IMG/VR virus record: IMGVR_UViG_3300042301_003793
Length of the DNA stretch: 64,000 nucleotides
Origin: a virus
Direction: 5' to 3' (one strand)
In this document: piece by piece, positions 12,165-52,100 of the stretch
Layout of the letters: each line of letters starts with the position of its first letter
Numbering within the stretch: the first letter of the stretch is position 1
Made by a program: the position numbers and the translations under genes
The notes under the pieces: model-generated
What the model was told of the DNA's origin: nothing
Seen by the model: the letters and a program-made list of their open reading frames with translations, nothing else
Databases searched by the model: none

Positions 12165-12211
12165 TTTTTTTTATCTTATAAATAGTTTTATTTTTTTTAA
12201 ATTCATTACTT

Positions 12212-17817: not shown

Positions 17818-18273
17818 TTAATTTTTTTCCAATATCAATAAAACATCATCTTGTATGATTGGGTCAACTAATTTTTTCCAGTAATCATCTTTATTTTTTA
17901 TACAATTTCTAATACCAGTTGCAGAAATCCCACCAATTTCTTTTGGTGGTGTAAATTCATTTACTTCATATCCAACACCGCGACCAAAATTAACAGATTC
18001 AATATCTGGAATAATGATAACTTTAACATCATCACCTTTTGATTTATGGTACTTCTCAATCATAGAAACTGTTTGTTCTGTTGTAAAAGGATTTTTTTCA
18101 TCAGGTTCAATATCTCTAATCATAATTAAAACTGGTACTCCTTCATTTAATTTTTGTTGGATTAACTCAATGTGACCAAAATGATAAGGTTGATAACGAC
18201 CTACAAAAACTGCATACTTTTTACTTTCGTTATTTGTTGGATTTCCTCCGTGGTTTTTCTTTTCCCAACTCAT
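17818..18273 (-). CDS. HxGH nucleotidyltransferase (cytidylyltransferase/NMNAT-like fold)
   Basis: GRYQPYHFGH, NPFT, ISATGIR motifs. Confidence 0.8.
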   Translation of the reverse strand: MSWEKKNHGGNPTNNESKKYAVFVGRYQPYHFGHIELIQQKLNEGVPVLIMIRDIEPDEKNPFTTEQTVSMIEKYHKSKGDDVKVIIIPDIESVNFGRGVGYEVNEFTPPKEIGGISATGIRNCIKNKDDYWKKLVDPIIQDDVLLILEKN

Positions 18274-18725
18274 ATGTGTTTAATTATTTCGTTTAATGAT
18301 TCTTGTGGATTAACACCTGTTGTATTAATATCAACAAAATTTTCTGATGGTTGTTCATACTCATCTGTATGGAAATGTTCTCTGCCTCTAATGTCTGTTG
18401 TATGAACATAAAACTCAACTAATAAATTTTGTAAATCATATTTAAAACTTTCTCTTAATTCTTTGTAAGGTGCAACAAGACTTACAATTACATCGTATCC
18501 TTGTACTAATAAAAATTTTGCAATGTCTTGAGCTCTTTTGATGTTTTCTTCTCTACCTTCTCTACCGTATTTTTGGTTATTGAAAAGTCTTCTTAATTCA
18601 TCACCGTCAATATGGAATACTTTATTTCCATATTCTTTTTCTAAAATTGTTTTTAACATTGTCGCTAATACAGTTTTACCAGCTCCTGGTTGTCCTGTAA
18701 ACCAATAAATCTTTTTTTCTTTCAT
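18270..18725 (-). CDS. cysC: Adenylyl-sulfate kinase (start probably 18725)
   Basis: WFTGQPGAGKT P-loop, IDGDELR, SLVAPY, YEQPSE. Confidence 0.85.
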   Translation of the reverse strand: MKEKKIYWFTGQPGAGKTVLATMLKTILEKEYGNKVFHIDGDELRRLFNNQKYGREGREENIKRAQDIAKFLLVQGYDVIVSLVAPYKELRESFKYDLQNLLVEFYVHTTDIRGREHFHTDEYEQPSENFVDINTTGVNPQESLNEIIKHI

Positions 18726-18727
18726 AA

Positions 18728-19546
18728 TCAAAAATAACCGAATTGGTCGTAAAACCATTGATGTTTTTGTTTTATCCAGTTACAAGCTGGTGTTCCAAGA
18801 ACTTCTTTATAATCTAATTTTAATGGTTCAATTTTAGATTTAATATTATGGTCACCATAAATTCCATAAACAGAATCATCTTCTTGTGTTATTTGTGTAA
18901 CATTATCAAAGTCGTGTTCAAAGTATGGTAACTCAAGATATTTATAAATTCTTTCCATTTCTTTTTTTGGATTTGAAGTGAAGTCTTCGAATTTAACAAA
19001 TAACATTTTATGATTAATACCTTCTTTGAAGATTTGATAAAGTCTTTCGACAGCCAAACCAACTGGTTGTGATTGTGACCAAATATCAATTCTTTTTTCT
19101 GTTGTAGTTCCTTGCATTTGCGCGTGATTAACAACACCAGAATCCATATGTTGACTCTTTCTAAAATTCTTTTCCATTGAGGCAAAGATTCCACGTAAGT
19201 CTCTTACCATACAAATAATCTTTGGTTCTGGATAAAAAGAATTTAAAAACCCATAATGAATACCCCAACCTCTACTTTTATCTAAAACATATGGTTTATC
19301 TGTTACACCATTAAAAAAACCTAACATACCTTGATTACAAAAGTTTAGAAAACCTTGTTTCATTAATTCTGAATCTTGTGCTTTAAACTCAGGTGATGAA
19401 GTGTAGTTTGCTCTTGCAGCATAAACTAATTCTAAAACACCAGATGTTGGTGTTACGTAAAACTCTGGATTTTGTCCCATAACATTTTGAAGTAATGTTG
19501 ATCCAGCTCTTGGTAATGAACTTTGGAAAAATATTTTTTCTACCAT
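18728..19546 (-). CDS. PAPS-dependent sulfotransferase
   Basis: SSLPRAGSTLL (5'-phosphosulfate loop) and VRDLRGIFAS (3'-phosphate motif). Confidence 0.85.
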   Translation of the reverse strand: MVEKIFFQSSLPRAGSTLLQNVMGQNPEFYVTPTSGVLELVYAARANYTSSPEFKAQDSELMKQGFLNFCNQGMLGFFNGVTDKPYVLDKSRGWGIHYGFLNSFYPEPKIICMVRDLRGIFASMEKNFRKSQHMDSGVVNHAQMQGTTTEKRIDIWSQSQPVGLAVERLYQIFKEGINHKMLFVKFEDFTSNPKKEMERIYKYLELPYFEHDFDNVTQITQEDDSVYGIYGDHNIKSKIEPLKLDYKEVLGTPACNWIKQKHQWFYDQFGYF

Positions 19547-19549: not shown

Positions 19550-20434
19550 TTAATTTTTTAGTGTTTCTATTATTTCGTTTATATTAAAGATGTTTGTATC
19601 AAATAAAGGACATTCGTGTATTGTACCATTAAAGTTGTAATCAAATAAGTAACTATCTGGTAACTTAACTGTTGTTGGTAGTTCTGCTATAATGTTTGTG
19701 TGTAATGGATAACCAAATACTTTTGGTGATGTACCAATCCACAATATGGTTGATGGTAGACCCATAGCAGCTGCCGCATGTTGTAAACAAGAATCAATTA
19801 ATAATCTTTTTTGAGCATAAGCTAATAATGAAAATAATTCCATATTAGACATAGGTTCTACGTGAGCCTCAACATTTTGTAAAACATTTGTTTGGTCTCT
19901 ACAAATTTGAATTATGTGATAATATTGTGAAAAGTGGTCAACAATTTTTTGAGCAACATCAAAAGGAATATCCCTTGTCCAAGAATATGGATATGGCTGT
20001 TCTTGTAATGGACCACCGTTTGTTTGAATGACCATTACAGGTTTTTCTCTTTTCCATTTATTAAATGCAACTTGTTGTTGTCTTAAATTAAATGAAAGTG
20101 ATGGCATTTCACCGTTATATTCTAAACCAAAAAGTTTACACCAATTCATAATTAATGGTAACTTTTTTTGGATATGGTCTGTTGTAAAATAAGGTTCGTG
20201 TTTAAAAATTAAACTATCTTTATCTTTAATGTAATCATCATAAAAATATGGTGTCATACCAATTCTATATACTCTATCAATAAAATCTAAATTTAAAAAT
20301 ATTTCTGGGTAAGCACAGACAATAATTAATTCCCTATCTGGGTGATTGTTTTTTATACATTTTGCAACAGCAGTTGATAGAACGTGTTTTCCTAAACCAC
20401 CTTCTAAATGAAATATACTATATTTTTTTTCCAT
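19550..20434 (-). CDS. GT9-like (GT-B) glycosyltransferase
   Basis: EGGLGKHVL and IDSCLQHAAAAMGLPSTILW motifs. Confidence 0.65.
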   Translation of the reverse strand: MEKKYSIFHLEGGLGKHVLSTAVAKCIKNNHPDRELIIVCAYPEIFLNLDFIDRVYRIGMTPYFYDDYIKDKDSLIFKHEPYFTTDHIQKKLPLIMNWCKLFGLEYNGEMPSLSFNLRQQQVAFNKWKREKPVMVIQTNGGPLQEQPYPYSWTRDIPFDVAQKIVDHFSQYYHIIQICRDQTNVLQNVEAHVEPMSNMELFSLLAYAQKRLLIDSCLQHAAAAMGLPSTILWIGTSPKVFGYPLHTNIIAELPTTVKLPDSYLFDYNFNGTIHECPLFDTNIFNINEIIETLKN

Positions 20435-20450: not shown

Positions 20451-21368
20451 TTAATTTTTGTTAGTAAAGATAATTGCTTCGTTAATCTTATCTATTACCA
20501 TTTTTGGTTTTATTTTTGTGTGACATTCGTTTTCTCTTTCTGTTCCTAAAAATATTGGACATTTAGTTTTTATATTTGGAAACATATTAAAACATCCATT
20601 ACAAACATAAGGGTTTGTGACTCTAAAACAATCAAATTCGTTTTGACTTTTTGTAAAATTTGAAATCATAACAACTGGTACGTCATAGGCCCAAGCAAGC
20701 CAAGAAAGACCTGAAGATAAACCAACAAAGAACCTTGAACTAACAATATGGTCAATTGCAACATTTAAATCATCGTGACCGTGAAAACCAATAACATTTT
20801 CTAAATTCATTGTATTTTCATAAGAAATGTTATAAACGTTGTAACCTACATTATGTAATGAATTTACAATTGTTTGCCAACCCTCATTCCCATTATATTT
20901 CCATTGTGAAATTTCTTTAATTGTTTCTGGACCCATAGTAATTTTATTTGGGTCTATTGTTCTTAGTTTTGGAATTACTGGACATTTACCTGGTTTTGTT
21001 TCTTGCGGTAATCGCATTGTATCTTTAGCAGCATAAAACATACCACCTAAAGTGTGTGCCATATTATTTTTATCATAACCAACATCAACTAGTTTATCAA
21101 TTTCTAAAAAACCACTTTCATTTGCGTTAATAAACTCATAGTCTGGTCTATTTGATTTTAATAGGTGTGGAAAAAAAGTTGTAACCCAAACGTACTTTGG
21201 TTTGTGATAATCCATAAAAGCATCCATCAAAGATGAAAAACAAATTGTATCACCTAAACAAAATGAGTCAAAGTGTAATAATAATTCTTTTCCTTCAAAG
21301 GTTTCTAAGTTTGGCTCTCTTTCTTTATAGTTCATCAACTCAGAATTGTCGTAATGTCTTTTAACCAT
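20451..21368 (-). CDS. TibC/Aah (BAHT)-like autotransporter heptosyltransferase homologue
   Basis: CLGDTI, FFVGLSSGLSWLAWA..VPVVMISNFT, and iron-finger-like CNGC..CP..EC. Confidence 0.75.
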   Translation of the reverse strand: MVKRHYDNSELMNYKEREPNLETFEGKELLLHFDSFCLGDTICFSSLMDAFMDYHKPKYVWVTTFFPHLLKSNRPDYEFINANESGFLEIDKLVDVGYDKNNMAHTLGGMFYAAKDTMRLPQETKPGKCPVIPKLRTIDPNKITMGPETIKEISQWKYNGNEGWQTIVNSLHNVGYNVYNISYENTMNLENVIGFHGHDDLNVAIDHIVSSRFFVGLSSGLSWLAWAYDVPVVMISNFTKSQNEFDCFRVTNPYVCNGCFNMFPNIKTKCPIFLGTERENECHTKIKPKMVIDKINEAIIFTNKN

Positions 21369-22104
21369 TTTTATATTTTAAAAGTTTAGAGTAATATTCA
21401 AACCAATATCTTTCTTGCCAGATTGTACCTTCTTCCAAATACACCAATGGTTTTTGTTGCCAAGGTTTTTTTACAATGTAGTGTAAAATTTTAATATGTT
21501 TTGGTAGTCCTGTATTTTTGAATATTTCTTTTGAATATGTTTTTAAGTAATTATATGATACTGGTATTTCAGTTATTTCATCATAAAAATAATTATTAAT
21601 AATATCTTGGTCCAGATGTTCTGTAATCCCATATATTGTTGTAAGATGTATTAAATCATCTGTTATTTTTTCAGATAAATATTTTTTTGAGATAACAAGA
21701 ACACCTGTGTTGTATTGGTCAATATATAAATCTCTAACACCACCAATATCACCATCAAAATCAATTAGATAATCAATGTTTCCTAAAATAACAACATCTG
21801 AATCTAAAAATATAATTTTGTTAAATTCAGTTAATGAAAAAATTTCATATTTAGTATAATCACCAAAAGACATTTGTTTTTCTTTTAGTTTTTCTATTTC
21901 AGAATATTTTTCGGTGTCAAATCTTTTTATGTGTATATTATTGTACATTCTTCTTGAGGCGACTAAATCTTCTGGTGTTAAATCATTTGTGATGATTACA
22001 AATGGTAATTTTTCACTAACAACTCTTGGGTTATTATCTATTAACGATTTTAACATTACCTCAAATCCTATAAGATAATCTTTATTACATACAGTTACAA
22101 ACAT
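21361..22104 (-). CDS. GT8 glycosyltransferase (glycogenin-like)
   Basis: YTKYEIF, IIFLDSD, YNTGVLV, DQDIIN, HYIVKKPW. Confidence 0.85.
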   Translation of the reverse strand: MFVTVCNKDYLIGFEVMLKSLIDNNPRVVSEKLPFVIITNDLTPEDLVASRRMYNNIHIKRFDTEKYSEIEKLKEKQMSFGDYTKYEIFSLTEFNKIIFLDSDVVILGNIDYLIDFDGDIGGVRDLYIDQYNTGVLVISKKYLSEKITDDLIHLTTIYGITEHLDQDIINNYFYDEITEIPVSYNYLKTYSKEIFKNTGLPKHIKILHYIVKKPWQQKPLVYLEEGTIWQERYWFEYYSKLLKYKNG

Positions 22105-22130
22105 ACCTCAAGTATAAAAAAAACATTATA

Positions 22131-22166
22131 AAAATAAAGAACCCCAACTGTTTTAAAATTGGGGTT
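22131..22166 (-). terminator. Intrinsic terminator after fibre gene 2
   Basis: AACCCCAA (22140-22147) / TTGGGGTT (22159-22166) stem; T-rich run follows on the minus strand. Confidence 0.7.
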
Positions 22167-22189
22167 ATTAAAAATTTTATAATTTGTTA

Positions 22190-25100
22190 TTAAGGAACAA
22201 AATATATTCTATTTAAATCTGTTGGACAGTAGTAAACGGATTTTGAAGGTAAACCAGCAGAACTAGTTGGTAAATCAATAATACTTAAACAGTTTACATA
22301 TGTTGTATTTGGACAACTTGTTGTAATTCCATAACCAACAATAAATGAGCAATTGTGTGAAACTGTATTTCCGGATCCACCAAGAATACCAGAATATTGT
22401 GTTGTTATAGTGTTTTGATAACCACCACTTACGGTTGAATTAGTTCCACTTGATGTGTTACATCGTCCACCACTTACGGTTGAATTAGTTCCACTTGATG
22501 TGTTTTGTTGTCCGCCGCCAATTACAGAATAACCTCCGATTGATGTGTTACATCGTCCACCACTTACGGTTGAATAAACTCCACTTGATGTGTTATATAA
22601 ACCACCACCTACAGTTGAAATATCTCCACTTGATAAGTTAAAATAACCACCACTTACGGTTGAATTATTACCACTTGCTGTATTTTGTCGTCCACCATTT
22701 ATATTTGAGTGATAACCAATTGCAGTGTTACATCGCCCCCCACTTACGGTTGAATAACAACCACTTGTTGTGTTTGAAACTCCACCACTTACGGTTGAAA
22801 ATGTATTACTTGCTCTGTTACCACAACCACCACCTACGGTTGCAAAATTATAATCAGTTGTTGATACAAGGAATGATATATCATCAACACCAGAAGTTCC
22901 ACCAAACAATGTTCCGTCAAATAATAAAAAATCACCATCAATATAGTTTTGACCAGCCGCTGAAATGGTAATGCTGTTAACAACACCTGCGGTCAAGTTA
23001 AAGTTAAACAAAGAGCCAAAACCGTTAACACTAGTTGTAAATGAAGAAGATACTCCCGGAAAAATACCAGTTGTTGTTGATCCACTTGTATTTAAATTAT
23101 AATAATTACTTACAGTTCCGTTTATACCTGCAATGTTTACTTTACCACCACCAATTGATGAACCAATAGTACGTGCTGTGTTTTGATAACCACCACTTAC
23201 TGTTGAATAATTCCCACTTGTTGTATTAAATTCTCCACCACCAATAAATGAAAATGGATTACTTGCTGTGTTTTTATAGCCACCACTTACGGTTGAAAAT
23301 GTATTACTTGATTCATTACGAATTCCACCACTTACTGTTGAACTAATCCCACTTGCATTATTACAACCACCACCACTTACAGTTGAAATATCTCCACTTG
23401 CTGTGTTACAATCACCACCACTTACATTTGAACGAATTCCACTTGATGTGTTACAATATCCACCACTTACAGTTGAGTAAAAAGCTGATGCTGTATTTCC
23501 ACAACCTCCGGCAATTGTTGACGCATAACCTGTTGCAAAATTACTATATCCACCGCTCACAGTCGAGTATTCACCCAATGAAGCATTATTACAACCACCA
23601 CCAACAAATGAAAAAGGTCCTGAATTTGTGTTTATTTGTAATGTAACATCATCAGTACCTGATACACCACTAAAATTAGTTCCATCAAAAAATAATGTAT
23701 CACCATTAACATAATTAGAACCACCAGATACAATATTAAGAGATGAAAAAGAACCTGTATTAAAAGTAAAATTAAATACCGCACCCGTACCATATCCAGA
23801 AACAGTTGATGTTGGTGTAATACCACCGTATATACCATTAAAGGTTCCTCCGGTATATACTGTATTGTAGTAATTACTAACAGTATTTTTTATCCCTGCT
23901 TTATTTCCATAACCACCACTTATTGTTGAAAAGTTAGTATACGATGTATTTTGAAAACCTCCACTAACAAGTGAAAAGTTACCAAGAGCGTCATTTAATG
24001 TACCAATTCTTTGTGTTGAATCTACCCCAGAACCAATTTCATAAGGTCCAGAACCAATTCCTCCACCAACAACAACATTACCTTGAGCATCAATACCCAA
24101 ATCATTTATTGACGTACCAGTACTAATAATACCTATATTTAATCCTGGTACATAAACAGTATCATCTGTTGTTCCAGAAATATTTTGTCCACCTAAAATA
24201 ACACTCCTATCTGCTTGTAAAGTAGAGTTATTTGAAAATACCATTGAGCAATCACCAATAACTATGTTATTAGCACCACCGGCAATTGCAGAACAATAAC
24301 CAGAAACTGTATTACTATATCCACCGGCAATATTACTATTAAATCCTATTACTGTATTAAATTGTCCACCGGCAATTGTTGTACCATCAGAATAAGTTTC
24401 ATTTGATAAACCACCTAATATTGATGCGTATGTTCCGTAGTTTTTATTTTGTGAACCACCTGCAACAACAGAAATGTTTGATACCGTTGTGTTTCCACAT
24501 CCACCACCTACAAATGAACCAGATCCTAAGTTTGCGTTATTACATCCACCAACAATAATAGAAAAGTTTGCGTCTGATGTGTTACAGCACCCACCAAGAA
24601 TTGCACTACCACAAGAATCAACCGTATTGTATTCTCCACCACCAACAACTGTAAAATCACAATTTGCGATGTTTGAGTTACCCCCACCAACAAAAGCTGT
24701 TGTGTCGGCTGCTGTGTTAAATCTACCACCAGCAACAATTGCAAAATCTCCAATAGCACTATTCTGTGCTCCACCACCAACGGTTGAGCAAGCATTTAAT
24801 GCAACATTTTCAAAACCACCACCAACAGTTGTGTTATAATCAGAAGCAGTGTTTGATTCTCCACCACCAATTGCCGAATATTTTCCAGAAGAAGTATTGT
24901 TACAACCAGCAACAACAGAAGCATAATTTTGTGATGCAACATTTAAGTAACCACCACCAATAAATGTACAGCTATCTAAAATTGTATTTTTACAACCACC
25001 AACAATTGTTGAAAGGTCGCCATTTATTGTATTTAATTCTCCGCCACCAATAAATGTTGATGATGAATTTGTTGTGTTTGTATTGCAATAACCACCAGTA

Positions 25101-25375
25101 ATTGAACCAAATGTTCCATTATTTGTATTACAATAACCGCCACCGATAAAAGAATAATTCCCAGTTGATTTATTACATCTACCACCAGTAATTACACCCA
25201 TACAACCAGTTGTTGTATTAAAAAAACCACCAACTATTGTTCCGTAGTTTTTATCTGCTGTGTTTGAATACCCACCTAATACTGTTGAATAATTACATCT
25301 AGCAGCATTATTATTATCACATCTAACTGTAGAGTTTATCCCACCTACCGGGTCATCAATTATAACGTAAGCCAT
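22190..25375 (-). CDS. Fibre-like virion protein 2 with 15-aa GGxxN repeats
   Basis: Dozens of S/T-V/I-x-G-G-x-x-N repeats, two inserted beta-rich domains, C-terminus similar to fibre 1. Confidence 0.7.
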   Translation of the reverse strand: MAYVIIDDPVGGINSTVRCDNNNAARCNYSTVLGGYSNTADKNYGTIVGGFFNTTTGCMGVITGGRCNKSTGNYSFIGGGYCNTNNGTFGSITGGYCNTNTTNSSSTFIGGGELNTINGDLSTIVGGCKNTILDSCTFIGGGYLNVASQNYASVVAGCNNTSSGKYSAIGGGESNTASDYNTTVGGGFENVALNACSTVGGGAQNSAIGDFAIVAGGRFNTAADTTAFVGGGNSNIANCDFTVVGGGEYNTVDSCGSAILGGCCNTSDANFSIIVGGCNNANLGSGSFVGGGCGNTTVSNISVVAGGSQNKNYGTYASILGGLSNETYSDGTTIAGGQFNTVIGFNSNIAGGYSNTVSGYCSAIAGGANNIVIGDCSMVFSNNSTLQADRSVILGGQNISGTTDDTVYVPGLNIGIISTGTSINDLGIDAQGNVVVGGGIGSGPYEIGSGVDSTQRIGTLNDALGNFSLVSGGFQNTSYTNFSTISGGYGNKAGIKNTVSNYYNTVYTGGTFNGIYGGITPTSTVSGYGTGAVFNFTFNTGSFSSLNIVSGGSNYVNGDTLFFDGTNFSGVSGTDDVTLQINTNSGPFSFVGGGCNNASLGEYSTVSGGYSNFATGYASTIAGGCGNTASAFYSTVSGGYCNTSSGIRSNVSGGDCNTASGDISTVSGGGCNNASGISSTVSGGIRNESSNTFSTVSGGYKNTASNPFSFIGGGEFNTTSGNYSTVSGGYQNTARTIGSSIGGGKVNIAGINGTVSNYYNLNTSGSTTTGIFPGVSSSFTTSVNGFGSLFNFNLTAGVVNSITISAAGQNYIDGDFLLFDGTLFGGTSGVDDISFLVSTTDYNFATVGGGCGNRASNTFSTVSGGVSNTTSGCYSTVSGGRCNTAIGYHSNINGGRQNTASGNNSTVSGGYFNLSSGDISTVGGGLYNTSSGVYSTVSGGRCNTSIGGYSVIGGGQQNTSSGTNSTVSGGRCNTSSGTNSTVSGGYQNTITTQYSGILGGSGNTVSHNCSFIVGYGITTSCPNTTYVNCLSIIDLPTSSAGLPSKSVYYCPTDLNRIYFVP
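22422..22504. repeat. Exact 38-bp direct repeat with 45-bp period (coding)
   Basis: CCACCACTTACGGTTGAATTAGTTCCACTTGATGTGTT at 22422-22459 and 22467-22504. Confidence 0.85.
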
Positions 25376-25405
25376 ATTTGTTTTTTTTATTTTTAATTTA
25401 TGTTT

Positions 25406-25435
25406 AAACCCCCACTATTAAATGGGGGTTTTTTT
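25406..25435. terminator. Terminator-like hairpin between fibre genes 3 and 2
   Basis: AAACCCCCA-CTATTAAA-TGGGGGTTT; long T tract on the plus side only. Confidence 0.6.
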
Positions 25436-25436
25436 A

Positions 25437-28400
25437 TTAAAGTTTAACCCAAAGTTGAGTACCACCACCTGACGCACTTGTTGTACACCTATAAACAGTA
25501 CCACTTGGAAGTGCTGTAACTTCAGTTTCGGTTGGTAAACTTTTTAAAGTAACTCTTGAACAAGTGTTTGGAGATGAAATACCGCCACCATTAACTGTAA
25601 AGTTATTTACAAAAGTTGTGAAACATTGATCAGTTGTAATGTTACATCCTAAAACGTGTGAATCACTTAAACAAACTGTGTTTGCTCTACCAACGGCCGA
25701 TGAATAAGAGGCAAGATTACTAATGTTGTTTCCACAACCACCTTTAATTGTTGACCAAGGAACATTAGTACCAATTATGTTACTTTCACCACCACCAATT
25801 GTACTACAACAAGAATTGTTTGTATTTAATCTACCACCAACAATACTTGAGTGAGACTGTAATACACAGTTAGATTGACCACCACCAATTGTTGAATAAG
25901 ATTGGATTAGACAGTTAAAAGCTCCACCACCAATTGTTGACGCATAACCTGTTGCAGATATTGAGTTTGAAATACCACCTAAGATACCTGCTACTGTAGA
26001 TGCTGCAGTATTTGTACTACCTAAAACAACAGAACAAGGACCGCTAGCAATGTTTGCTGATCCAGTTCTAAGAGTTGAAAGTGAGCCTGTACCCGCAACA
26101 ACAATTTGAGTTGGAATTGATGTTAAACCAGCTGGTAATCCACTTACAGTTGCAACGCCATTTTGTCTATTTAATGTGATTAAACCGTTAGCGTTATTAT
26201 ATGTACCACCAGTAACAAAGAAATCATTACTTTGGAAACCAGGTACAGTAACATTAGTACCATTGTTTTGACCAAGAGTTAAGGTACCATTTGAATATGT
26301 CCCACCAGTTACAAATGTGTTTTGTGTTTGGAACCCAAGAATACTTACATCGGTAGCACCATTTGATTGTGATAATACTAATTCACCTATTGTTGGGTTA
26401 TATGTACCACCAGTTAAATATTTATCACTATCAATTAATGTTGCTAAATCAACATTAAATGAATTTCCATCATTTCTATCAAATGTAATTTGTGAAAGTA
26501 CGTTATCATACGTACCACCAGTAACGTATGTGTTTTCAGTTACAATTGTAAACGGACCACCATTTGGTGTTAAATTATATTCTAAAGTTGATGTTTGTAC
26601 ATTTGTATTATCATTTCCAGATGTTAATGTACTTCCTGTTACAAAATAATCTGTAAATCCAGTTGCCGTAACTTGAGAGCCATCGGTATTTGTTAAAGTT
26701 AATGTATCACCAACTTTTGTTGCACCAGTCAAATATGTGTCCGTGTATCCAGTTGTAAATCCAGAAATTTGTACTGTATTTCCAGATGTGTTAACAAATG
26801 TTACAACACCTGTATTTGCATCATATGTACCACCAGTTAAACCTAAGTCAGTTGCTAAAACACCTAAATTTACTTGTAAATCATTTCCATCATTAACCGA
26901 TGCTGTTAAAATAAATGAACTATTATCAAATGTTAATCCAGTTAAAAAGTAATCTGTTTGAGATACTACCGAAACAACATTACCAGACGCATCAACACCT
27001 AATGTAGAAACTGGCGTTGTTGCACCAACTGTTTGAATATTTAATTGTGGAACATAAACAGTATCATTTGTTGTACCAGTAATATTTTGTCCACCTATTA
27101 CAGCTGACCTATTTCCTGTTACAACGTTTTGACATCCACCAAGAATCATAGATTGTGTTGCTTGAGCTCTGTTTTCTACACCACCAGCAATAACTGAGTT
27201 ATTTCCAGTCGCAGTATTTCTTAGACCTCCAAGAATTGATGATTCAAAATTAAGAGCAGTATTACATCTACCACCACCAATTGTTGATCTATAACCAGAT
27301 GCGGTATTTCTATATCCACCACTTATTGTGTTATTTATACCAAATGATGTATTAAATGAACCACCACCTACATTTGATCTATTCCCAACTGCTGAGTTAT
27401 ATAAACCACCACCTACTGATGATTGGAAATTATAAGTTTCATTACAATATCCACCACCAATTACTGACGCAAAACCGTATGCTTTATTCCCAAATCCACC
27501 ACCAATTGCGATGCTTCCACCACAACCAGTATTACAACAACCACCAGCAACAGTATCACTCAAATTACAAGTTTTGTTAGATCTACCACCACCTATAGCT
27601 GTGTAGTTACTAAATGTTTGATTATTACAACCACCATTAATTGTTGAGAATGACCCATTTAATTGGTTAACAGCCCCACCATTAATAACACCCATATATC
27701 CAAAGTTGTTGTTAGCAAAACCACCACCAACAAATGAATAATTACCACTAGCAATATTAACAAAACCACCGGCAACAACGTCACTATTATTATTTGCTTG
27801 GTTTTGACAACCACCACCAATTGTACTTGCAAATCCATTTGCATTATTATTAACACCAAACACAGTTGAATATTGACCGTTAGCGTTATTTCCTGAGTTT
27901 TTCCTTACTGAAGAAGAAAATCCATTACCTCCAACAATTACAGCATCTTCAATTCCAGAAATATCTACTGTACCATTTTGTTGTTGGATTGTTAAGGTTG
28001 ATGTTGATGGAGTATAAAAACCACCAGTAACATATGTATCTGTATATCCAGTTAAGAAACCAGTAACACTAAATGTACCACCAGAGTTATTTGTAAAAGT
28101 TGCAGTACCAGAGTTTAAATCATATGTACCACCAGTTACTCTTAAATCACCAGCTAAAATACCTAAATTAACCGTGTAGGCACTATAGTTGTTTAGTTCA
28201 ACTGTTAAGGCGTAAGTACTTTGGTCAAATGTAAATCCAGTTGTAAAGTAATCTGTAGCGCCAGTTGTAAAACCAGTCACAACAAAAGAACCACCCTGGT
28301 TGTTTTCAAATGTTGCACTACCAGTTGAGTTATCATATGTACCTCCCGTAACATATGTGTCGATAGATGTAAACCCAGTTACAAGAACTGATGAACCATC

Positions 28401-29873
28401 TGTATTTGTTAAAGTCAAATTGCCGGCAGTAAATGTACCACCAGTCAAATATGTGTCTGTGTATCCAGTTGTGAAACCAGAAATTTGTACTGTATTTCCA
28501 GATGTGTTTATAAATGTTACAACACCAGTATTTGCGTTATATGTTCCACCTGTTAAACCTAAGTCAGTTGCTAGAACACCAAGATTTATTGTATCACTAA
28601 AACCATCATTTCTTCCAATAGTTAAATCAAAACTATTTGTATCAAATGTTACACCGGTAAAATATTTATCTTCTAAACCAGATATAGAAACATTTGTTCC
28701 GTTTTTCATTTCTAAAGTAAGACCACCAGCATTATAATTAAATGTACCACCAGTCACAAAATTGTCTCCTGTAACAAATCCACCTTGAACCACGTTACTA
28801 CCATTACTATTAATTAATGTTAAAACACCTGTAACATTATCTAATGTTGACGCACTTAAAAATATATCATTATCACCACCAATTACAACATTACCATTAG
28901 CATCTATTCCTAAATTATTAACAGATGTTGTAGTACCAATTGAATCGATATTTAATTTTGGTACATAAACAGTATCAGCTGATGTTCCTGTTAAGCCAGC
29001 ACCACCAAGGATAACCGACCTTGTACCAGTTAGTACATTTCCATTTCCACCAATAGTTGCGGAGTAATTCCCACTAACTTTATTTAATTGACCATTCCCA
29101 ACAAAAGAATTTACACCTCTTGCAATGTTATTATCACCACCAACTATTGTTGATCCTGACATCGCGGTGTTATTATCACCACCAAGAATGTTAGATTTTA
29201 AATTTATTGCTGTGTTGCAGTATCCCCCACCAACAATTGTGTAATCTGACATGGCAGAATTTAAAACACCACCAACAACAATTGCTGATTTTCCATTTGC
29301 AACGTTTTCACAACCACCATTTATGTTAGCAAATGTTCCGTTAAGATTATTACCAAAACCACCAACAATTGAAGAGTAGCTCCCGTTCAAATTATTTAAT
29401 CTACCATTCCCAATAAAAGTGTCGCACCCAATTGCTATATTATTATCCCCACCAACAATACTACTACTACAACATGCTGTGTTATTGTCTCCACCAAGAA
29501 CAATAGATTTCAAACCAATTGCCGTGTTATAATAACCACCACCAATAATTGTATAATCTGATTGTGCTGTATTAAATGCACCACCATTAACAATCGATGA
29601 TTTACCATTTGCAAAGTTACTACATCCACCACCAATATTACTTAGTAATCCGTTAGAACGGTTAAGGTAACCACCATTTATACTTGAATAACTTCCGTTT
29701 GCCGTATTTCCTCTACCACCGGCAATTGTTGAGTATCCGGTATTTCCACTTGTCGTGTTTGCTCTACCCCCAGAAACGGTAGAATAAAGAGCTGAAGCAG
29801 AATTTGTTTGCCCACTCCTAACTGTTGTTGTTAATCCACCTACTGGATCTGTAATAATAACATAATTTGACAT
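25437..29873 (-). CDS. Fibre-like virion protein 3 (1478 aa) with GGxxN and xVTGGTY repeats
   Basis: Three GGxxN repeat blocks alternating with YVTGGTY beta-repeat blocks; N-terminus similar to fibre 2. Confidence 0.7.
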   Translation of the reverse strand: MSNYVIITDPVGGLTTTVRSGQTNSASALYSTVSGGRANTTSGNTGYSTIAGGRGNTANGSYSSINGGYLNRSNGLLSNIGGGCSNFANGKSSIVNGGAFNTAQSDYTIIGGGYYNTAIGLKSIVLGGDNNTACCSSSIVGGDNNIAIGCDTFIGNGRLNNLNGSYSSIVGGFGNNLNGTFANINGGCENVANGKSAIVVGGVLNSAMSDYTIVGGGYCNTAINLKSNILGGDNNTAMSGSTIVGGDNNIARGVNSFVGNGQLNKVSGNYSATIGGNGNVLTGTRSVILGGAGLTGTSADTVYVPKLNIDSIGTTTSVNNLGIDANGNVVIGGDNDIFLSASTLDNVTGVLTLINSNGSNVVQGGFVTGDNFVTGGTFNYNAGGLTLEMKNGTNVSISGLEDKYFTGVTFDTNSFDLTIGRNDGFSDTINLGVLATDLGLTGGTYNANTGVVTFINTSGNTVQISGFTTGYTDTYLTGGTFTAGNLTLTNTDGSSVLVTGFTSIDTYVTGGTYDNSTGSATFENNQGGSFVVTGFTTGATDYFTTGFTFDQSTYALTVELNNYSAYTVNLGILAGDLRVTGGTYDLNSGTATFTNNSGGTFSVTGFLTGYTDTYVTGGFYTPSTSTLTIQQQNGTVDISGIEDAVIVGGNGFSSSVRKNSGNNANGQYSTVFGVNNNANGFASTIGGGCQNQANNNSDVVAGGFVNIASGNYSFVGGGFANNNFGYMGVINGGAVNQLNGSFSTINGGCNNQTFSNYTAIGGGRSNKTCNLSDTVAGGCCNTGCGGSIAIGGGFGNKAYGFASVIGGGYCNETYNFQSSVGGGLYNSAVGNRSNVGGGSFNTSFGINNTISGGYRNTASGYRSTIGGGRCNTALNFESSILGGLRNTATGNNSVIAGGVENRAQATQSMILGGCQNVVTGNRSAVIGGQNITGTTNDTVYVPQLNIQTVGATTPVSTLGVDASGNVVSVVSQTDYFLTGLTFDNSSFILTASVNDGNDLQVNLGVLATDLGLTGGTYDANTGVVTFVNTSGNTVQISGFTTGYTDTYLTGATKVGDTLTLTNTDGSQVTATGFTDYFVTGSTLTSGNDNTNVQTSTLEYNLTPNGGPFTIVTENTYVTGGTYDNVLSQITFDRNDGNSFNVDLATLIDSDKYLTGGTYNPTIGELVLSQSNGATDVSILGFQTQNTFVTGGTYSNGTLTLGQNNGTNVTVPGFQSNDFFVTGGTYNNANGLITLNRQNGVATVSGLPAGLTSIPTQIVVAGTGSLSTLRTGSANIASGPCSVVLGSTNTAASTVAGILGGISNSISATGYASTIGGGAFNCLIQSYSTIGGGQSNCVLQSHSSIVGGRLNTNNSCCSTIGGGESNIIGTNVPWSTIKGGCGNNISNLASYSSAVGRANTVCLSDSHVLGCNITTDQCFTTFVNNFTVNGGGISSPNTCSRVTLKSLPTETEVTALPSGTVYRCTTSASGGGTQLWVKL
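26725..28586. repeat. Internal ~146-bp near-identical duplication in fibre 3 (26725-26870 and 28441-28586)
   Basis: Both copies encode LGVLATDLGLTGGTYxANTGVVTFxNTSGNTVQISGFTTGYTDTYLTG. Confidence 0.85.
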
Positions 29874-32818: not shown

Positions 32819-32870
32819 CTTTTTTATTAATAAATACAACAATTCAAAGTATTTATATTAAAACTATTTT

Positions 32871-35766: not shown

Positions 35767-35795
35767 TTGATATTTTAATTAAATATGGGTATATT
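35767..35795 (+). promoter_or_regulatory. Possible sigma70-like promoter for the large glycosylation operon
   Basis: TTGATA (35767-35772), 17 nt, TATATT (35790-35795), immediately after the terminator. Confidence 0.45.
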
Positions 35796-35814
35796 TTTTC
35801 TTATAAAATTAATT

Positions 35815-37029
35815 ATGGAAAAGATAAATGTACTAGTACTCCCTAGTGACCAATCAGGAGTAGGAAAATTCAGATCAGTTGACCCCCACGTTAAATTACA
35901 AAATATGTATCCAGATGATTTCCATGTGGATATTGACTACGAACCAAAAATAAATGATATAAATTACTGGAAAAAATACCAAATTGTACATTTTCATAGA
36001 AGTATCGGGACTGATTATGATAACTGCCCTAACATAATAAAAATGTTACAATCAATGGGTATTGTTGTTGTTGCTGATATTGATGATTATTGGTTACCAA
36101 CAAAAGAACATCCGATTCATCAGTTGATTATTCAAAACAAATTACACGAAAAGATAACAACAAATCTTAAAGCGGCTGATTGTGTTATTACAACAACAGA
36201 ACTTTTTGCAAATGAGATAAAAAAATACAATAAAAATGTAATTGTATTACCAAATGCTGTTGACCCAGCTGACCCACAATTTAATGAACCAACACCAACG
36301 TCTGATAAAATTAGAATTGGTTGGCTAGGTGGTTCTTCACACTTACACGATTTAAAATTACTTGATGGTATGGTTTCTAAACTTTCACCATTCCAAGATA
36401 AATTACAATATTATGTTTGTGGTTTTGATATTCGTGGTACTGTAACAGAAATTAACCAACAAACAGGACAAAAAACACAAAGATCAATAAAACCAGAAGA
36501 AACTGTTTGGGTTAAATACGAACAAATTTTTACAGACAATTACAAAATTATTACACCAAAGTACAAAGATTATTTAGATACATTTACAGAAAATGATTAT
36601 CCTGGTGTTTTAGATGAAAACTATGTTAGAGTTTGGACAAGACCTGTCACAAGTTATGCAAAAAACTATTCTAAATTTGATATTTCTTTAGCACCAATTA
36701 AAAACCATATCTTTAACCGAATGAAGTCTCAACTTAAAGTTATTGAGGCTGGGTTTTATAAAAAAGCATTAATTGCATCAAATGTTGGTCCCTACACGAT
36801 TGATTTAAAACATGCACTTAAGAATGGACAATTTACAGATGGAAACGCATTACTTGTAAATGAAAATAATAATCACAGTGATTGGGCAAAAAATATTAAA
36901 AAGTTAGTTGAAAATCCTAATATGATTACAGATCTTGGTGAAAGATTGTATGAAACAGTAAAGGATAGATACGACTTAAATAAAGTTACAGAAACAAGAG
37001 CACAATTTTACAAATCTTTAATTAAATAA
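35815..37029 (+). CDS. GT-B (GT4-like) glycosyltransferase (start probably 35815)
   Basis: DIDDYW, RIGWLGGSSHLHDL, FDISLAPI..FNRMKSQLKVIEAG..ALIAS. Confidence 0.75.
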   Translation: MEKINVLVLPSDQSGVGKFRSVDPHVKLQNMYPDDFHVDIDYEPKINDINYWKKYQIVHFHRSIGTDYDNCPNIIKMLQSMGIVVVADIDDYWLPTKEHPIHQLIIQNKLHEKITTNLKAADCVITTTELFANEIKKYNKNVIVLPNAVDPADPQFNEPTPTSDKIRIGWLGGSSHLHDLKLLDGMVSKLSPFQDKLQYYVCGFDIRGTVTEINQQTGQKTQRSIKPEETVWVKYEQIFTDNYKIITPKYKDYLDTFTENDYPGVLDENYVRVWTRPVTSYAKNYSKFDISLAPIKNHIFNRMKSQLKVIEAGFYKKALIASNVGPYTIDLKHALKNGQFTDGNALLVNENNNHSDWAKNIKKLVENPNMITDLGERLYETVKDRYDLNKVTETRAQFYKSLIK

Positions 37030-37031
37030 AA

Positions 37032-37733
37032 ATGATTAATATTCCAATAACAAAAATTTTATTTCTAGATATTGAAACTGTTGGTGGTTGTCCAGATTTT
37101 GAATCCTGTCAAAAGTTTAGTCCAGAAATTGCGGACCAGTTTAATAAATATTTTGATTGGTTTTTAAAAAGATTTCCAGAAGACAATGGTTTAACAAAAG
37201 ACGAAGTTTTTACAAAAAGAGCGGCACTTGTTCCAGAGTTTGCAAAAATTGTTTGTGTATCTGTTGCATTTGTTTTAGATAACGGCGAAACAAAAAAACA
37301 ATCTTTTTCTGGTGAAGATGAAAAAAAACTATTAAAAGAAGTTAGAACATTACTTGATAGATGTGAAAACCTTGGGTTTTATCTTTGCGGTCATAACTTA
37401 AAGAATTTTGATATTCCGATGCTTGCAAAAAGAATGATTATAAATGGAATCCGCCCCTCAAAAATTCTTCCGTCTTATGATACAAAACCTTGGGAAATAA
37501 AAGCAATTGATACAAAAGAAATTTGGCAGTATGGTTCTTATACATCAATAGGTTCTTTAGATTTATTATGTTCTTGTCTTAATATACCAACACCAAAGGA
37601 CGGTGAAATAACTGGTGCTAATGTACATTCTGCATACTGGGAAGAACAAAAAATAAAAGAAATTACAGAATACTGTGAAAAAGATGTGGAGGTATTAATC
37701 GAAGCAATAATGAAATTAAAAAGTTTAGAATGA
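37032..37733 (+). CDS. DnaQ/PolB-related 3'-5' exonuclease
   Basis: FLDIETV, GHNLKNFDIP, YCEKDV (DEDDy). Confidence 0.8.
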   Translation: MINIPITKILFLDIETVGGCPDFESCQKFSPEIADQFNKYFDWFLKRFPEDNGLTKDEVFTKRAALVPEFAKIVCVSVAFVLDNGETKKQSFSGEDEKKLLKEVRTLLDRCENLGFYLCGHNLKNFDIPMLAKRMIINGIRPSKILPSYDTKPWEIKAIDTKEIWQYGSYTSIGSLDLLCSCLNIPTPKDGEITGANVHSAYWEEQKIKEITEYCEKDVEVLIEAIMKLKSLE

Positions 37734-38293
37734 GTGATAATATAGAAAATTTGTTTGACGATTCAATCGCAGATATTGATTACAATAAAATATTAAATGA
37801 ATTTGGAATAGACGTTGAAACCCTTGAAAAAGAACTTGGTGTTTATCAACCGACAATAGATTTAAAATTTTCAAAAGAAAACAATGGAGTATTAACGCCA
37901 GAATACGCATATCCATCAGATTCTGGATTTGATTTATATTCAACAGAAGAATTAACAATTGAACCATTTGGAAGAGTATTAGTACCGACCGGATTACGAG
38001 TTGATATACCAGAAAATTATGAAATCCAAGTTAGATCAAAAAGTGGTTTGGCACTTAAACAAGGATTGATGGTTTTAAATTCACCAGGTACTGTTGACCA
38101 GGGATATACAGGTGAAATTAAAGTTATACTTTTTAACACAACAAATAGTAATGTAAAAATATTAAAAGGACAAAAGGTCGCACAAGCTGTTTTATGTCCT
38201 GTTGTTAGCGGAAGGTGGGTTAGATTAAAAGAAATTAAAAACGTAGAAGACAAAGATAGGTCTGATAAAGGATTTGGAAGTACAGGAATATGA
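37730..38293 (+). CDS. dut: Trimeric dUTPase
   Basis: SGFDL, RSKSGLA, GTVDQGY, AQAV, RSDKGFGSTG. Confidence 0.92.
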   Translation: MSDNIENLFDDSIADIDYNKILNEFGIDVETLEKELGVYQPTIDLKFSKENNGVLTPEYAYPSDSGFDLYSTEELTIEPFGRVLVPTGLRVDIPENYEIQVRSKSGLALKQGLMVLNSPGTVDQGYTGEIKVILFNTTNSNVKILKGQKVAQAVLCPVVSGRWVRLKEIKNVEDKDRSDKGFGSTGI

Positions 38294-39813
38294 TTACAAT
38301 AGGATATTCAACAAGACAACATAACCCAACTTTAATAGAATATTATAAAAAAGCTTGTGGTGGTGGAAAGAAAATTGAGGTTATTGAAAAAGTTAATAAC
38401 GGTGAAAAAGGACTTGCTCAAGTTTACAACGAAATATTAAATGAAGCTCAAAATAATATTGTGGTTTTTTGTCACGATGATATTGAGTTTGATACAAATA
38501 ATTGGGGTGAAAAATTATTAAAGCTTTTTAATAAAAATCCAGAGTTTGGTATAATTGGAATTGCTGGGACAACAGATTTAATTGATGGTCGTTGGTGGAC
38601 ACTAAAAGAATCAATGACTGGTATTGTTTCACACAAACACGAAGGTAAAAAATGGACAAATACTTATTCACAAGACCAGGGAAACAAACTAAAAGAAGTT
38701 GTTGTTCTTGATGGATTATTTTTTGCTGTTGATAAGACAAGAATCCAAAGGGGATTTGATGACTCATTTGAAGGTTTCCATTTTTATGAAATTCCTTTTT
38801 GTCTTGAAAACTATTTGAATGGTGTTAAACTTGCTGTTACAACACAAATTCGTGTGACGCATATGTCTATTGGTCAAACAAATGAACAATGGGAAAAAAA
38901 TAAAATTAAGTTCGAAGAAAAGTATAAAGAAGCTATACCAATTAGATTAACAAATAATAAAACTTTGGAAGAAAAGATGGTCCTTGATATATCTAAAGTT
39001 GGTATTGGTATGACCACATATAAAGCCGAACATAGAATAAAACAATCGGCATTTACGGTACCAAAATGGATGAAGAATTTTGTAATTGTAAACGATGGTA
39101 CACCATACGATAGCTCTTCATATCCAGAACAAGCACACATCATACAACACGAAAAAAACCAGTGTGTTGGTGCGGCAAAAAATACCGCAATGAAATATCT
39201 TTTAGAACAAGGATGTGAACACATATTTTTAATGGAAGATGATATTTTAATTAAAGATGAAAAAGTTTTTGAAGAATATATTAGACATTCAGTTTTATCT
39301 GGTATAAAACATTTAAATTTTGCATTACACGGACCAGCAAATAAAAAAGGATCAACTGGTTTTACAACACTTGAAGATAGACAAGATGTTGATGGTGAAC
39401 CAAACCCAAGAATGATTATGCCTTATCCAGAAGGAATTAAAATTGTTCTTTATCCAAACTGTGTTGGTGCTTTTTCATATTACCACAAATCGGTTTTAGA
39501 CAAGATTGGTTTATTTGATCCAGTATTTAAAAATGCTTGGGAACACGTAGAACACACTTACCAAGCAATTAAAAATAAATTCCATCCTCCTTTCTGGTAT
39601 TTTGCCGACATTGAAAATAGTTGGAAGTTTTTAACCGACATTCCAAATTCAATACAGGAAAGTACAATTGCCAGAACACCAGAATGGAATGAAAATTTTA
39701 GAGTTGGTACAGAACACTATAAGAAAAAACACGGTATGGCACCAACAGAAACACCAGTTGTTCATCCACAAGTTGTTTACAACACAATAAATTATTTATA
39801 CTCAACAAGATAA
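38290..39813 (+). CDS. Two-domain GT-A glycosyltransferase
   Basis: VFCHDDI / GIIGIAG / LDGLFFA domain, then IVNDGT..GAAKN..FLMEDD domain. Confidence 0.75.
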   Translation: MITIGYSTRQHNPTLIEYYKKACGGGKKIEVIEKVNNGEKGLAQVYNEILNEAQNNIVVFCHDDIEFDTNNWGEKLLKLFNKNPEFGIIGIAGTTDLIDGRWWTLKESMTGIVSHKHEGKKWTNTYSQDQGNKLKEVVVLDGLFFAVDKTRIQRGFDDSFEGFHFYEIPFCLENYLNGVKLAVTTQIRVTHMSIGQTNEQWEKNKIKFEEKYKEAIPIRLTNNKTLEEKMVLDISKVGIGMTTYKAEHRIKQSAFTVPKWMKNFVIVNDGTPYDSSSYPEQAHIIQHEKNQCVGAAKNTAMKYLLEQGCEHIFLMEDDILIKDEKVFEEYIRHSVLSGIKHLNFALHGPANKKGSTGFTTLEDRQDVDGEPNPRMIMPYPEGIKIVLYPNCVGAFSYYHKSVLDKIGLFDPVFKNAWEHVEHTYQAIKNKFHPPFWYFADIENSWKFLTDIPNSIQESTIARTPEWNENFRVGTEHYKKKHGMAPTETPVVHPQVVYNTINYLYSTR

Positions 39814-39814
39814 T

Positions 39815-40576
39815 ATGATAGATTTTAAAGACGTAACTTTCATTATCCCAGTAAGGTTTGATAGTGAAGATAGAAAAAGAAATTTTAGAATTACAATTGC
39901 ATTTCTAGAAAAACATTTTGATACCAACATAATTGTTATGGAGTCAGACAAGACTTCAAATGAAGAATTTGTTAAATCAATATCAGAAAAATTAACTTAT
40001 GTTTTTGAAAAAAATGATAGTCATTTATTTCATAGAACAAAAATGTTAAATGATATGACCAAGATGTCTAAAACAAATTTTGTTGTAAACTACGATATTG
40101 ATGTTTTATTTAAACCAGAACAGTACGTTGCATCTAGATTTGCCTTGGGTACTGGTGCTGATTTTGTTTTTCCGTATGCTGGTAAATTCTATGATATACC
40201 ACCAACATATTTTGATAATATATCAAATAACGAATTTGATAAGATTAGTTTAGACTCTTGTACATTATTTAATCCAAATTCATTGGGTGGTGCAATATTC
40301 TTTAAAAAAGACTCTTACACTAAAATTGGTTTGGAAAATGAAAACTTTGTTTCCTGGGGTCACGAAGACTGGGAAAGAATTGGAAGAATAGAAAAAATGG
40401 GTCATAAAATTTATCGAATAGATGGTGTATTATATCATTTAACACACCAAAGAACACATAACAGTTCTGATGCAAACCCTATGTATAACCATAATGGAAA
40501 TGAATATAGAAAAGTTATGTCGATGAATAGAGAACAATTAGTGGAACACATAAAAACTTGGGATTGGATTAAATGA
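39815..40576 (+). CDS. GT2/GT7-like glycosyltransferase
   Basis: FIIPVR, NYDID, GGAIF, WGHED. Confidence 0.75.
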   Translation: MIDFKDVTFIIPVRFDSEDRKRNFRITIAFLEKHFDTNIIVMESDKTSNEEFVKSISEKLTYVFEKNDSHLFHRTKMLNDMTKMSKTNFVVNYDIDVLFKPEQYVASRFALGTGADFVFPYAGKFYDIPPTYFDNISNNEFDKISLDSCTLFNPNSLGGAIFFKKDSYTKIGLENENFVSWGHEDWERIGRIEKMGHKIYRIDGVLYHLTHQRTHNSSDANPMYNHNGNEYRKVMSMNREQLVEHIKTWDWIK

Positions 40577-44105: not shown

Positions 44106-44107
44106 AA

Positions 44108-51030: not shown

Positions 51031-51037
51031 AAAAAGT

Positions 51038-52099: not shown

Positions 52100-52100
52100 T

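Follow-up and report, generated by a model that had tools for sequence, protein, structure and literature searches.

A barrel-less TibC/Aah-type glycosyltransferase beside beta-roll fibre genes of an uncultured virus, a candidate enzyme for fibre O-glycosylation

To our knowledge, every known bacterial autotransporter heptosyltransferase (BAHT) enzyme is the partner of a virulence autotransporter of bacteria, and glycosylation of phage-particle proteins has been shown experimentally in few cases only, for example in mycobacteriophages. Here we describe a BAHT-like gene, P0001, found on the minus strand of a 64,000-nucleotide stretch of viral DNA (IMG/VR record IMGVR_UViG_3300042301_003793; this whole stretch is called the window below), where it lies near genes for repetitive fibres. 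In the closest described enzyme, TibC, iron is bound by Cys339, 342, 358 and 370, the thumb-tip residues Phe265/Val266 are needed for the dodecamer, and the substrate TibA is modified at Ser313 (Q-N-S-G-G) and Ser322 (N-T-S-A-A), serines only (PMC4358343). Another account describes mycobacteriophage glycosyltransferases, encoded among structural genes, that put O-glycans on the phages' own virion proteins (Freeman et al. 2023, as cited in PMC12619734). P0001 resembles these in being phage-encoded and placed among structural genes, and would likewise act on the phage's own proteins; the mycobacteriophage acceptors differ in being the C-termini of capsid and tail-tube subunits, and the available part of the account mentions no TibC-type iron-finger enzyme (PMC12619734). 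Our search of the literature on phage BAHT/TibC-like enzymes and glycosylated phage fibres found no paper describing such a system. As judged from genomic association and motif logic only, O-glycosylation of the fibres by P0001 is the best-supported mechanism, and we lean slightly towards it. The genes concerned are as follows.

20451..21368, minus strand: P0001, a barrel-less TibC/Aah-superfamily (BAHT-like) glycosyltransferase of 305 aa
22190..25375, minus strand: fibre 1, 1061 aa, with 49 units of a 15-residue repeat, two insert domains of about 100 aa and a conserved C-terminal region
25437..29873, minus strand: fibre 2, 1478 aa, with 41 units in three blocks and a second repeat type of about 33 residues (TGGTY...TF.N..G)
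9255..12164, minus strand: fibre 3, a 969-aa paralogue that contains three insert domains besides its 34 units

A preliminary description of the window had called this enzyme TibC/BAHT-like, and the likeness was borne out by sequence and fold. Residues 216-227 of P0001 read GLSSGLSWLAWA and are followed by the cysteine cluster C256-N-G-C259 ... C270-P ... E281-C282, both as described earlier for 20451..21368. The protein also carries an LGD catalytic motif (D40, in FCLGDT) and a GLSSGLSW donor-site motif (W223). When P0001 was compared with the PDB by phmmer, TibC (4RAP/4RB4) was the sole sequence match (E=1.2e-14), and in this alignment the finger residues C256, C259, C270 and C282 fell on the four iron-binding cysteines of TibC. 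These cysteines were invariant in 46 diverse homologues and in 118 members of the short clade, the close relatives of P0001. The NCBIfam profile TIGR04414 (hepto_Aah_TibC) matched at E=2.9e-34 over profile positions 80-373 of 374, with 118.6 bits against a curated cut-off of 200. Chance does not come near to explaining the resemblance, and P0001 is securely a true TibC/Aah homologue and a divergent, minimal member of the superfamily. Three further cysteines, C37, C43 and C247, were likewise invariant in 118/118 short-clade members and may form a second metal site or a disulfide.

The AlphaFold (AF2) model of P0001, built on 46 homologues, had a predicted local distance difference test (pLDDT) score of 94.8. 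Foldseek placed TibC on top (E~1e-18, template modelling (TM) score 0.76-0.79), with lipopolysaccharide (LPS) heptosyltransferases at just E~1e-7, and VIA-align gave Z 28.2 to TibC (root-mean-square deviation 2.4 Å, 289 residues) versus Z 18.6-20.1, about 8 units lower, to glycosyltransferase family 9 (GT9) enzymes. P0001 therefore did not model as an ordinary GT9 enzyme devoid of the finger, one of the outcomes that the preliminary description had named against itself; its finger is intact. With the GT9 enzymes WaaC/WaaF (2H1H, 1PSW) it shares the GT-B superfamily, an LGD-type catalytic Asp and a weak PF01075 match (16.1 bits, below the gathering score of 22), and it differs from them in identity (12-14%), in having the Cys finger and in that theirs is a lipid-linked oligosaccharide acceptor. 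This distant relationship, and the frequency of LPS-type gene islands in large marine phages, discussed for cyanophages (PMC12801897), would fit a P0001 that alters the host envelope, perhaps by putting heptose or some other sugar on the LPS core or a host surface protein and so blocking superinfection or changing receptors. We regard this as unlikely, since in fold and sequence P0001 is far nearer to protein-modifying TibC than to WaaC/WaaF, the open reading frames (ORFs) scanned included no recognisable flippase, polymerase or initiating transferase of the lipid-linked kind, and the gene lies inside a fibre operon, in a family whose association is with fibre genes.

To compare residues, P0001 was aligned with E. 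coli Aah and diverse homologues, and conservation was counted in the 118 short-clade members. P0001, at about 23-30% identity to TibC/Aah, is not a canonical BAHT, which qualifies the preliminary description: it falls under the family cut-off, has no beta-barrel and has a shortened thumb. The N-terminal beta-barrel (TibC residues 1-97) is absent, the protein starting at about TibC residue 75-80; PF21129 (TibC_1st) gave zero match on P0001, and Aah and the longer relatives have 60-90 additional N-terminal residues. The beta-hairpin thumb is short by 8 residues, 3 of them missing at TibC 263-265 and 5 at TibC 271-275, and lacks the Phe265/Val266 tip, and the loop inside the finger is also shorter than in TibC. 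Because the barrel is gone and the thumb is short, P0001 is probably not a dodecamer. Retained in 118/118 members were D40 (TibC Asp110), P147-E148-[ST]149-x-K151, G216-L-S-S-G-L, W223 (Trp305), E244, R249 and the four Cys, S/T149 taking the position of TibC Thr226. The stereoselectivity site (Pro300 in TibC, Ser294 in Aah) is Ser218 in P0001, i.e. of the Aah type. The position of TibC Arg286, which binds heptose, is Ala in 80 and Ser in 38 of the clade members; that of TibC Lys230 is unconserved (N, D, E or K), an invariant Lys151 lying three residues earlier, by which Lys230 would be functionally replaced, if at all. The conservation pattern reads as that of an active transferase with a remodelled donor site.

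The altered donor contacts bear on another explanation, namely that P0001 is no transferase and instead uses its metal finger to help assemble or target beta-solenoid fibres. A role of this kind has been proposed in Burkholderia for the BAHT-like protein BimC, which pairs with the trimeric autotransporter BimA. The loss of Arg286 and displacement of Lys230 would suit such a role, as would a long branch of about 2 substitutions per site, which suggests a functional shift, and the contact that the TibC finger makes with the substrate helix (PMC4358343). The retention of the catalytic Asp, GLSSGLSW, S/T149, Lys151 and Glu244 in 118/118 members is the pattern of an active enzyme, and we consider a non-transferase role very unlikely. 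BimC is mentioned in PMC11499645.

In the phylogenetic tree the short clade was monophyletic with 100/100 support, its stem being the long branch just mentioned. The clade was phage-only and stood beside other viral forms, apart from the cellular clade containing Aah. The tree was midpoint-rooted only, so no direction of transfer can be claimed, and the earlier statement that the phage had repurposed an autotransporter enzyme is left with no direction demonstrated; what is seen is a long branch among viral forms, with the BAHT-like domain on at least 577 viral contigs in IMG/VR. The nearest tree neighbours of the P0001 clade are phage TibC-like proteins fused to GT4 and methyltransferase domains (e.g. 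the 'FkbM methyltransferase' of Microcystis phage Mel-JY01; loci L031, L036 and L066). They share with P0001 a finger-bearing catalytic domain, a short thumb and a giant periodic Ser/Gly-rich fibre as neighbour. The differences are that their catalytic domains are C-terminal parts of 700-1450-aa proteins, some with a TibC-type barrel, while P0001 is free-standing with its helper enzymes as separate genes, and that their fibres are proline-free and collagen-like, (Gly-Thr/Ser-Ser)n, while those of P0001 are beta-rolls.

The two tandem SGG-repeat genes and the third gene at 9255 were found as described earlier, and the distance from the P0001 ORF to the stop of fibre 1, given as about 0.8 kb, was 822 nt, with a GT8 gene between. 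Across the three fibres there are 124 GGxxN units, with the consensus S-T-[IV]-[GSA]-G-G-x-x-N-T-[AS]-S-G-x-x, and the spacing to the next unit is exactly 15 residues in 39, 27 and 19 cases (1061-, 1478- and 969-aa fibres). The 'dozens' of STVSGG/STISGG repeats reported before hold for the repeat units and less so for literal hexamers in the 1478-aa protein: the strict form S[TAVI][VIL][SGA]GG occurs 20 times in the 1061-aa fibre, 9 times in the 1478-aa fibre and 20 times in the 969-aa fibre. The density of Ser-Gly dipeptides is 1.6-4.6 per 100 aa in the fibres, 0.3 in the other window proteins and 5.2 in AIDA-I. The preliminary description had also pointed to SGG motifs in AIDA-I, and a check of an E. 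coli plasmid copy found 46 SGG, a 19-residue period and Ser at -1 of GG in 79% of units.

As for the fold of the fibres, the head of UspA1 from Moraxella catarrhalis (3PR7, 3NTN) was the relevant match, 3PR7 matching the 1061-aa fibre at E=1.8e-31 and the 1478-aa fibre at E=4.3e-25. UspA1 is the one solved head whose layers are mostly of 15 residues, which result from an extra Gly (PMC9543794), and the phage fibres share with it this layer with extra Gly and the strand-turn-strand-turn build. In the AF2 model of residues 846-1061 of the 1061-aa fibre (pLDDT 77.9), strands of 4-5 residues (S-T-V-S, x-N-T-A) alternate with three-residue turns (G-G-x, S-G-x). Foldseek on this model returned nothing significant; the VIA-wide structural scan gave Z 13.7-16.6 for the UspA1, BpaC, CbpF and YadA heads and Z 12.3 for the TibC-glycosylated TibA fragment 4Q1Q. 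From the UspA1 match, the strand-turn model and the structural scan together, the fibres are 15-residue left-handed beta-rolls homologous to the UspA1/YadA-type head, and not the AIDA-type autotransporter beta-helices that the preliminary description had taken them for. YadA-like domains have been reported in marine phage tail fibres (PMC3909814).

The fibres depart from UspA1/YadA-like heads in several ways. They showed neither a membrane anchor nor a coiled-coil stalk, and when the three complete fibres were scanned with Pfam the outcome was a weak beta-roll family only, with no YadA-type anchor; the beta-roll is broken by the inserts of about 100 aa; and the C-terminal region, which by alignment is common to the 969-aa and 1061-aa fibres, is phage-specific, with a phage-specific motif at the C-termini. 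We know of no BAHT modification of UspA1. Compared with TibC/Aah, P0001 is alike in so far as its gene adjoins a Ser-Gly-rich periodic beta-solenoid protein; its partner is an anchorless phage fibre with a 15-residue beta-roll, unlike their autotransporter with a 19-residue beta-helix, and further glycosyltransferase and sulfation genes stand in its operon. A tblastn search of the phage collection with the fibre (216 aa and full length) gave zero matches, for which the BLAST low-complexity filter may be the cause.

Several minor features of the fibres were also observed. The insert domain (…NYxxGDxLxFxGxxFGGxSGxDDV…, e.g. 22832-23143, minus strand) breaks up the beta-roll at two places in the 1061-aa fibre and at three in the 969-aa fibre, and had zero PDB sequence match. 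The repeat of about 33 residues (…VTGGTYxxxTGxxTFxNxxGxxxxVTGFTTG…) fills the parts of 25437-29873 (minus strand) and 9255-12164 (minus strand) that are not beta-roll. Cys stands at repeat position 7 or 8 in 15-18% of units in the fibres of 22190-29873 (minus strand), and could form ladders or disulfides along the beta-roll. Adjoining the fibres, a 962-aa protein (29954-32842, minus strand) has a C1 peptidase domain of the papain-like type at its C-terminal end (phrog_16701 E=4e-55; PF00112 weak).

We then asked how regularly such genes stand next to fibres. The protein collection contained 1928 homologues of P0001, mostly of about 300 aa, many of them already auto-labelled by the Joint Genome Institute (JGI) as 'autotransporter strand-loop-strand O-heptosyltransferase'. 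In 20/24 short-clade IMG/VR loci (48-90% identity, high-GC lineages included) one or two 15-residue-repeat fibre genes were located within 10 kb, usually 0.8 kb upstream with GT8 between; among the four exceptions, two had no upstream flank and one (L022) had another fibre kind in the slot. Every close relative had GT8 immediately upstream of its BAHT-like gene, and the order fibre-fibre-GT8-BAHT-GT9-like-sulfotransferase was kept in related phages, the sulfotransferase beside the glycosyltransferase trio.

The association extended beyond the short clade. At 30-36% identity, the distant viral forms make up the C-terminal part of larger proteins (700-1450 aa) that also carry GT4, GT32-like and methyltransferase domains, and adjoin giant proline-free collagen-like fibres of Gly-[Ser/Thr]-[Ser/Thr/Asn] triplets. 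An ORF counted as a periodic fibre if it was 250 aa or longer and had a 150-aa window with 60% or more G+S+T+N and a self-identity of 0.3 or more at any lag from 3 to 30; 89 viral BAHT-like loci (1.45 Mb) were compared with 80 control loci (1.44 Mb) around GDP-mannose dehydratase (GMD) genes. The results showed a periodic G/S/T/N-rich fibre ORF within 10 kb in 55/89 BAHT-like loci and in 0/80 controls (Fisher p=3e-21), and within 2.5 kb in 37/89 BAHT-like loci. When counted by cluster at 70% identity, such fibres lay near 17/25 BAHT-like clusters (Fisher p=7e-14). Cellular genomes gave at least 556 matches to P0001, all at 35% identity or less, and in about 18 of the 80 bacterial homologues examined the next gene showed the classical pairing, encoding a protein whose period is 19 residues. 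One Selenomonadaceae metagenome-assembled genome carries five tandem BAHT-like genes (L183:8238-14542).

P0001 belongs to a minus-strand gene series running fibre, fibre, GT8, BAHT-like, GT9-like, sulfotransferase, APS kinase, small nucleotidyltransferase, GT60-like and HtrL-type. Its further members, and the other glycan genes of the window, are these (APS, adenosine 5'-phosphosulfate; PAPS, 3'-phosphoadenosine 5'-phosphosulfate).

21361..22104, minus strand: GT8-family glycosyltransferase, candidate for extending the glycan (PF01501 E=2e-25)
19550..20434, minus strand: remote GT9-like GT-B enzyme of 294 aa (PF01075 E=4e-4, under cut-off; phrog_8954), with LGK for LGD and no CxxC
18728..19546, minus strand: sulfotransferase (PF13469 E=1.4e-19; phrog_27463 E=3e-41)
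18270..18758, minus strand: APS kinase, for PAPS supply to the sulfotransferase (PF01583 E=3.6e-19)
15582-16826 and 13924-15585, minus strand: GT60-type 'GlcNAc' transferase (PF11397 E=1e-70; phrog_24687 E=7e-162) and HtrL/YibB-like protein
22140..22166, minus strand: terminator-like hairpin in the interval from fibre 1 to GT8 (consensus scan; 10-bp stem, then a T-rich tail)
35785..52907, plus strand: glycan-synthesis island (Pfam and NCBIfam scans)

The genes are tightly packed: GT8 and the BAHT-like gene overlap by 8 nt, a 16-nt gap leads to the GT9-like gene and a 3-nt gap to the sulfotransferase. The GT9-like protein was considered as a second BAHT and rejected as merely a remote GT9-like relative with LGK and no CxxC; hhalign gave it 80% probability against the BAHT-like profile, and it had no PDB sequence match.

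Taken with the fold and the genomic setting, the proposed fibre O-glycosylation would proceed as follows. P0001 would be an active, cytoplasmic, inverting GT-B protein O-glycosyltransferase, a minimal TibC/Aah-superfamily form that keeps the catalytic domain and the four-Cys metal finger. During infection it would move sugar from a nucleotide donor to serine hydroxyls of the phage's own beta-roll fibres (22190-25375, 25437-29873 and 9255-12164), the acceptor serines being those of x-S-G-G and N-T-x-S-G, where strands pass into turns in the 15-residue repeats. The co-operonic GT8, GT9-like enzyme, sulfotransferase and APS kinase would then extend and sulfate the glycan, and the end product on the virion would be fibres coated with (sulfated) O-glycans.

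As to the donor, the preliminary description had doubted heptose and seen no ADP-heptose pathway in the window, and the doubt proved reasonable. The Pfam and NCBIfam scans found no recognisable ADP-heptose genes in the window, and gmhA was found in none of five related contigs searched, each rated just 39-52% complete. A short-chain dehydrogenase/reductase (SDR) at 44629-45564 was considered as ADP-heptose epimerase and set aside, since it scored better as GalE or RmlB type, under all cut-offs. With the Arg286 contact missing clade-wide and no ADP-heptose genes found, a donor other than ADP-heptose appears plausible from the sequences; ADP-heptose itself would be a doubtful donor, the Arg286 contact being gone and Lys230 displaced. 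Genes that may bear on the donor and that the window does encode are for GDP-mannose dehydratase, a GDP-fucose-synthase-like enzyme, a GalE/RmlB-like SDR, a DegT aminotransferase, an acetyltransferase and methyltransferases. In the island 35785..52907 the transferases are GT4-like, GT2, GT7C-like, GT11, GT10 and GT2, accompanied by two methyltransferases, the acetyltransferase, the GalE/RmlB-like SDR, the GDP-fucose-synthase-like enzyme, the DegT aminotransferase and a GDP-mannose 4,6-dehydratase. The island may be the source of donor sugars and further transferases.

The candidate acceptor serines were located on the strand/turn map of the fibre model only. The repeat presents the contexts that TibC modifies in TibA: 26% of units have Ser at position 4, giving x-S-G-G, and 33% have it at position 12, giving N-T-x-S-G. 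Each of the two falls at a strand-to-turn junction there.

A number of results weigh against fibre glycosylation by P0001. The beta-barrel and thumb that TibC needs for activity on TibA are both absent from P0001. We looked for an acceptor signature, that is, more Ser at positions 4 and 12 where the enzyme is present, and found none: Ser occupies these positions in 26%/33% of units in phages with the enzyme, versus 19-22%/50-63% in phages without it, and the repeat serines are fold features whether modified or not. In the L022 locus the glycosyltransferase operon is kept, yet the fibre encoded at that slot has 535 aa and is free of GGxxN repeats. The synteny within the short clade may come partly from common descent. 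Given the hairpin at 22140..22166, the glycosyltransferase operon may be transcribed partly on its own, apart from the fibre gene, although the region holds 8 terminator-like sites versus 6.3 expected, hence this evidence is weak. The fibres were also traced independently of the enzyme, in a locus scan with a 5-sequence alignment of their C-terminal part (a 10-sequence one was too divergent), and relatives were found on 218 viral contigs. A BAHT-like gene lay within 10 kb in just 6/79 fibre loci. When long fibre-bearing contigs were searched whole, the enzyme was present in 2/15, and in 0/5 of those rated 99-100% complete; fibres in five complete phage genomes without the enzyme indicate that the fibres need no enzyme. 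The enzyme is an accessory of some fibre-bearing phages, as BAHT enzymes are with only some autotransporters.

The occurrence of fibres without the enzyme and the missing serine signature would also be expected if P0001 acts on another virion protein, for example a Pro/Thr-rich (PT-rich) mucin-like one, or extends a sugar already on protein. Such PT-rich mucin-like proteins are encoded nearby, and the same block encodes the GT60-like polypeptide GlcNAc-transferase listed above; the GT60-type and HtrL/YibB-like genes suggest a second, mucin-type protein glycosylation route. Moreover, most phages have the homologous domain as part of a fusion with GT4, GT32-like and methyltransferase domains, as in multi-step glycan builders. 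Yet TibC and Aah, the sole characterised members, use the serines of proteins as direct acceptors (PMC4358343), across the family the neighbour is not a PT-rich protein but a periodic fibre rich in Ser/Gly, and the GT60-like enzyme would be the more natural initiator on PT-rich tracts. We hold this explanation possible but rather doubtful.

Returning to fibre O-glycosylation, the overall claim of the preliminary description survived in its TibC homology, fibre linkage and doubt about heptose, and fell in the AIDA-type helix, the canonical BAHT and the direction implied by 'repurposed'; the glycosylation itself, its acceptor serines and the naming of the fibres as tail fibres stand as inferences. 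If P0001 does modify the fibres, a whole branch of the BAHT family, on at least 577 viral contigs, might decorate the phages' own host-recognition fibres, with a bearing on receptor binding, on how well marine viral particles withstand proteases and grazers, and on how sticky they are. With neither barrel nor thumb, the 305-aa form would then be a natural minimal enzyme, separating the parts of TibC for catalysis from those for dodecamer-based processivity; the link of PAPS and sulfotransferase makes sulfated glycoprotein fibres a directly testable idea, and L022 is a natural variant useful for the question of acceptor specificity. More tentatively, and with some reserve, we propose that iron-finger TibC-type enzymes could amount to a widespread phage system for O-glycosylation of fibres of at least two architectures, beta-roll and proline-free collagen-like, in which the present form would be a probably non-dodecameric starter leading to sulfated glycans from a donor other than ADP-heptose. 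In the L022 locus (L022:6768-9250 and 11816-12637) a second sulfotransferase gene is inserted before the GT8 gene, besides the different fibre.

The window is gene-dense, with about 30% G+C, and encodes a family-B DNA polymerase, a helicase, PhoH, a dUTPase and many sugar enzymes. The source virus is a marine phage, large and uncultured. Its relatives in IMG/VR are contigs of 115-160 kb with completeness ratings of 39-52%, from which the virus is probably a jumbo phage of about 290 kb. Among deposited phages no close relative of the window was found, a megablast of 18-30 kb against the phage collection giving zero matches. Two other proteins on the plus strand were observed in addition. A 929-aa protein (59880-62669) has a WD40-like beta-propeller segment at residues 446-587, with every score under the Pfam cut-offs. 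In a 698-aa protein (2500-4596), residues 165-354 form an entire Fe/Mn superoxide dismutase domain (PF00081 and PF02777), with unannotated regions on both sides.

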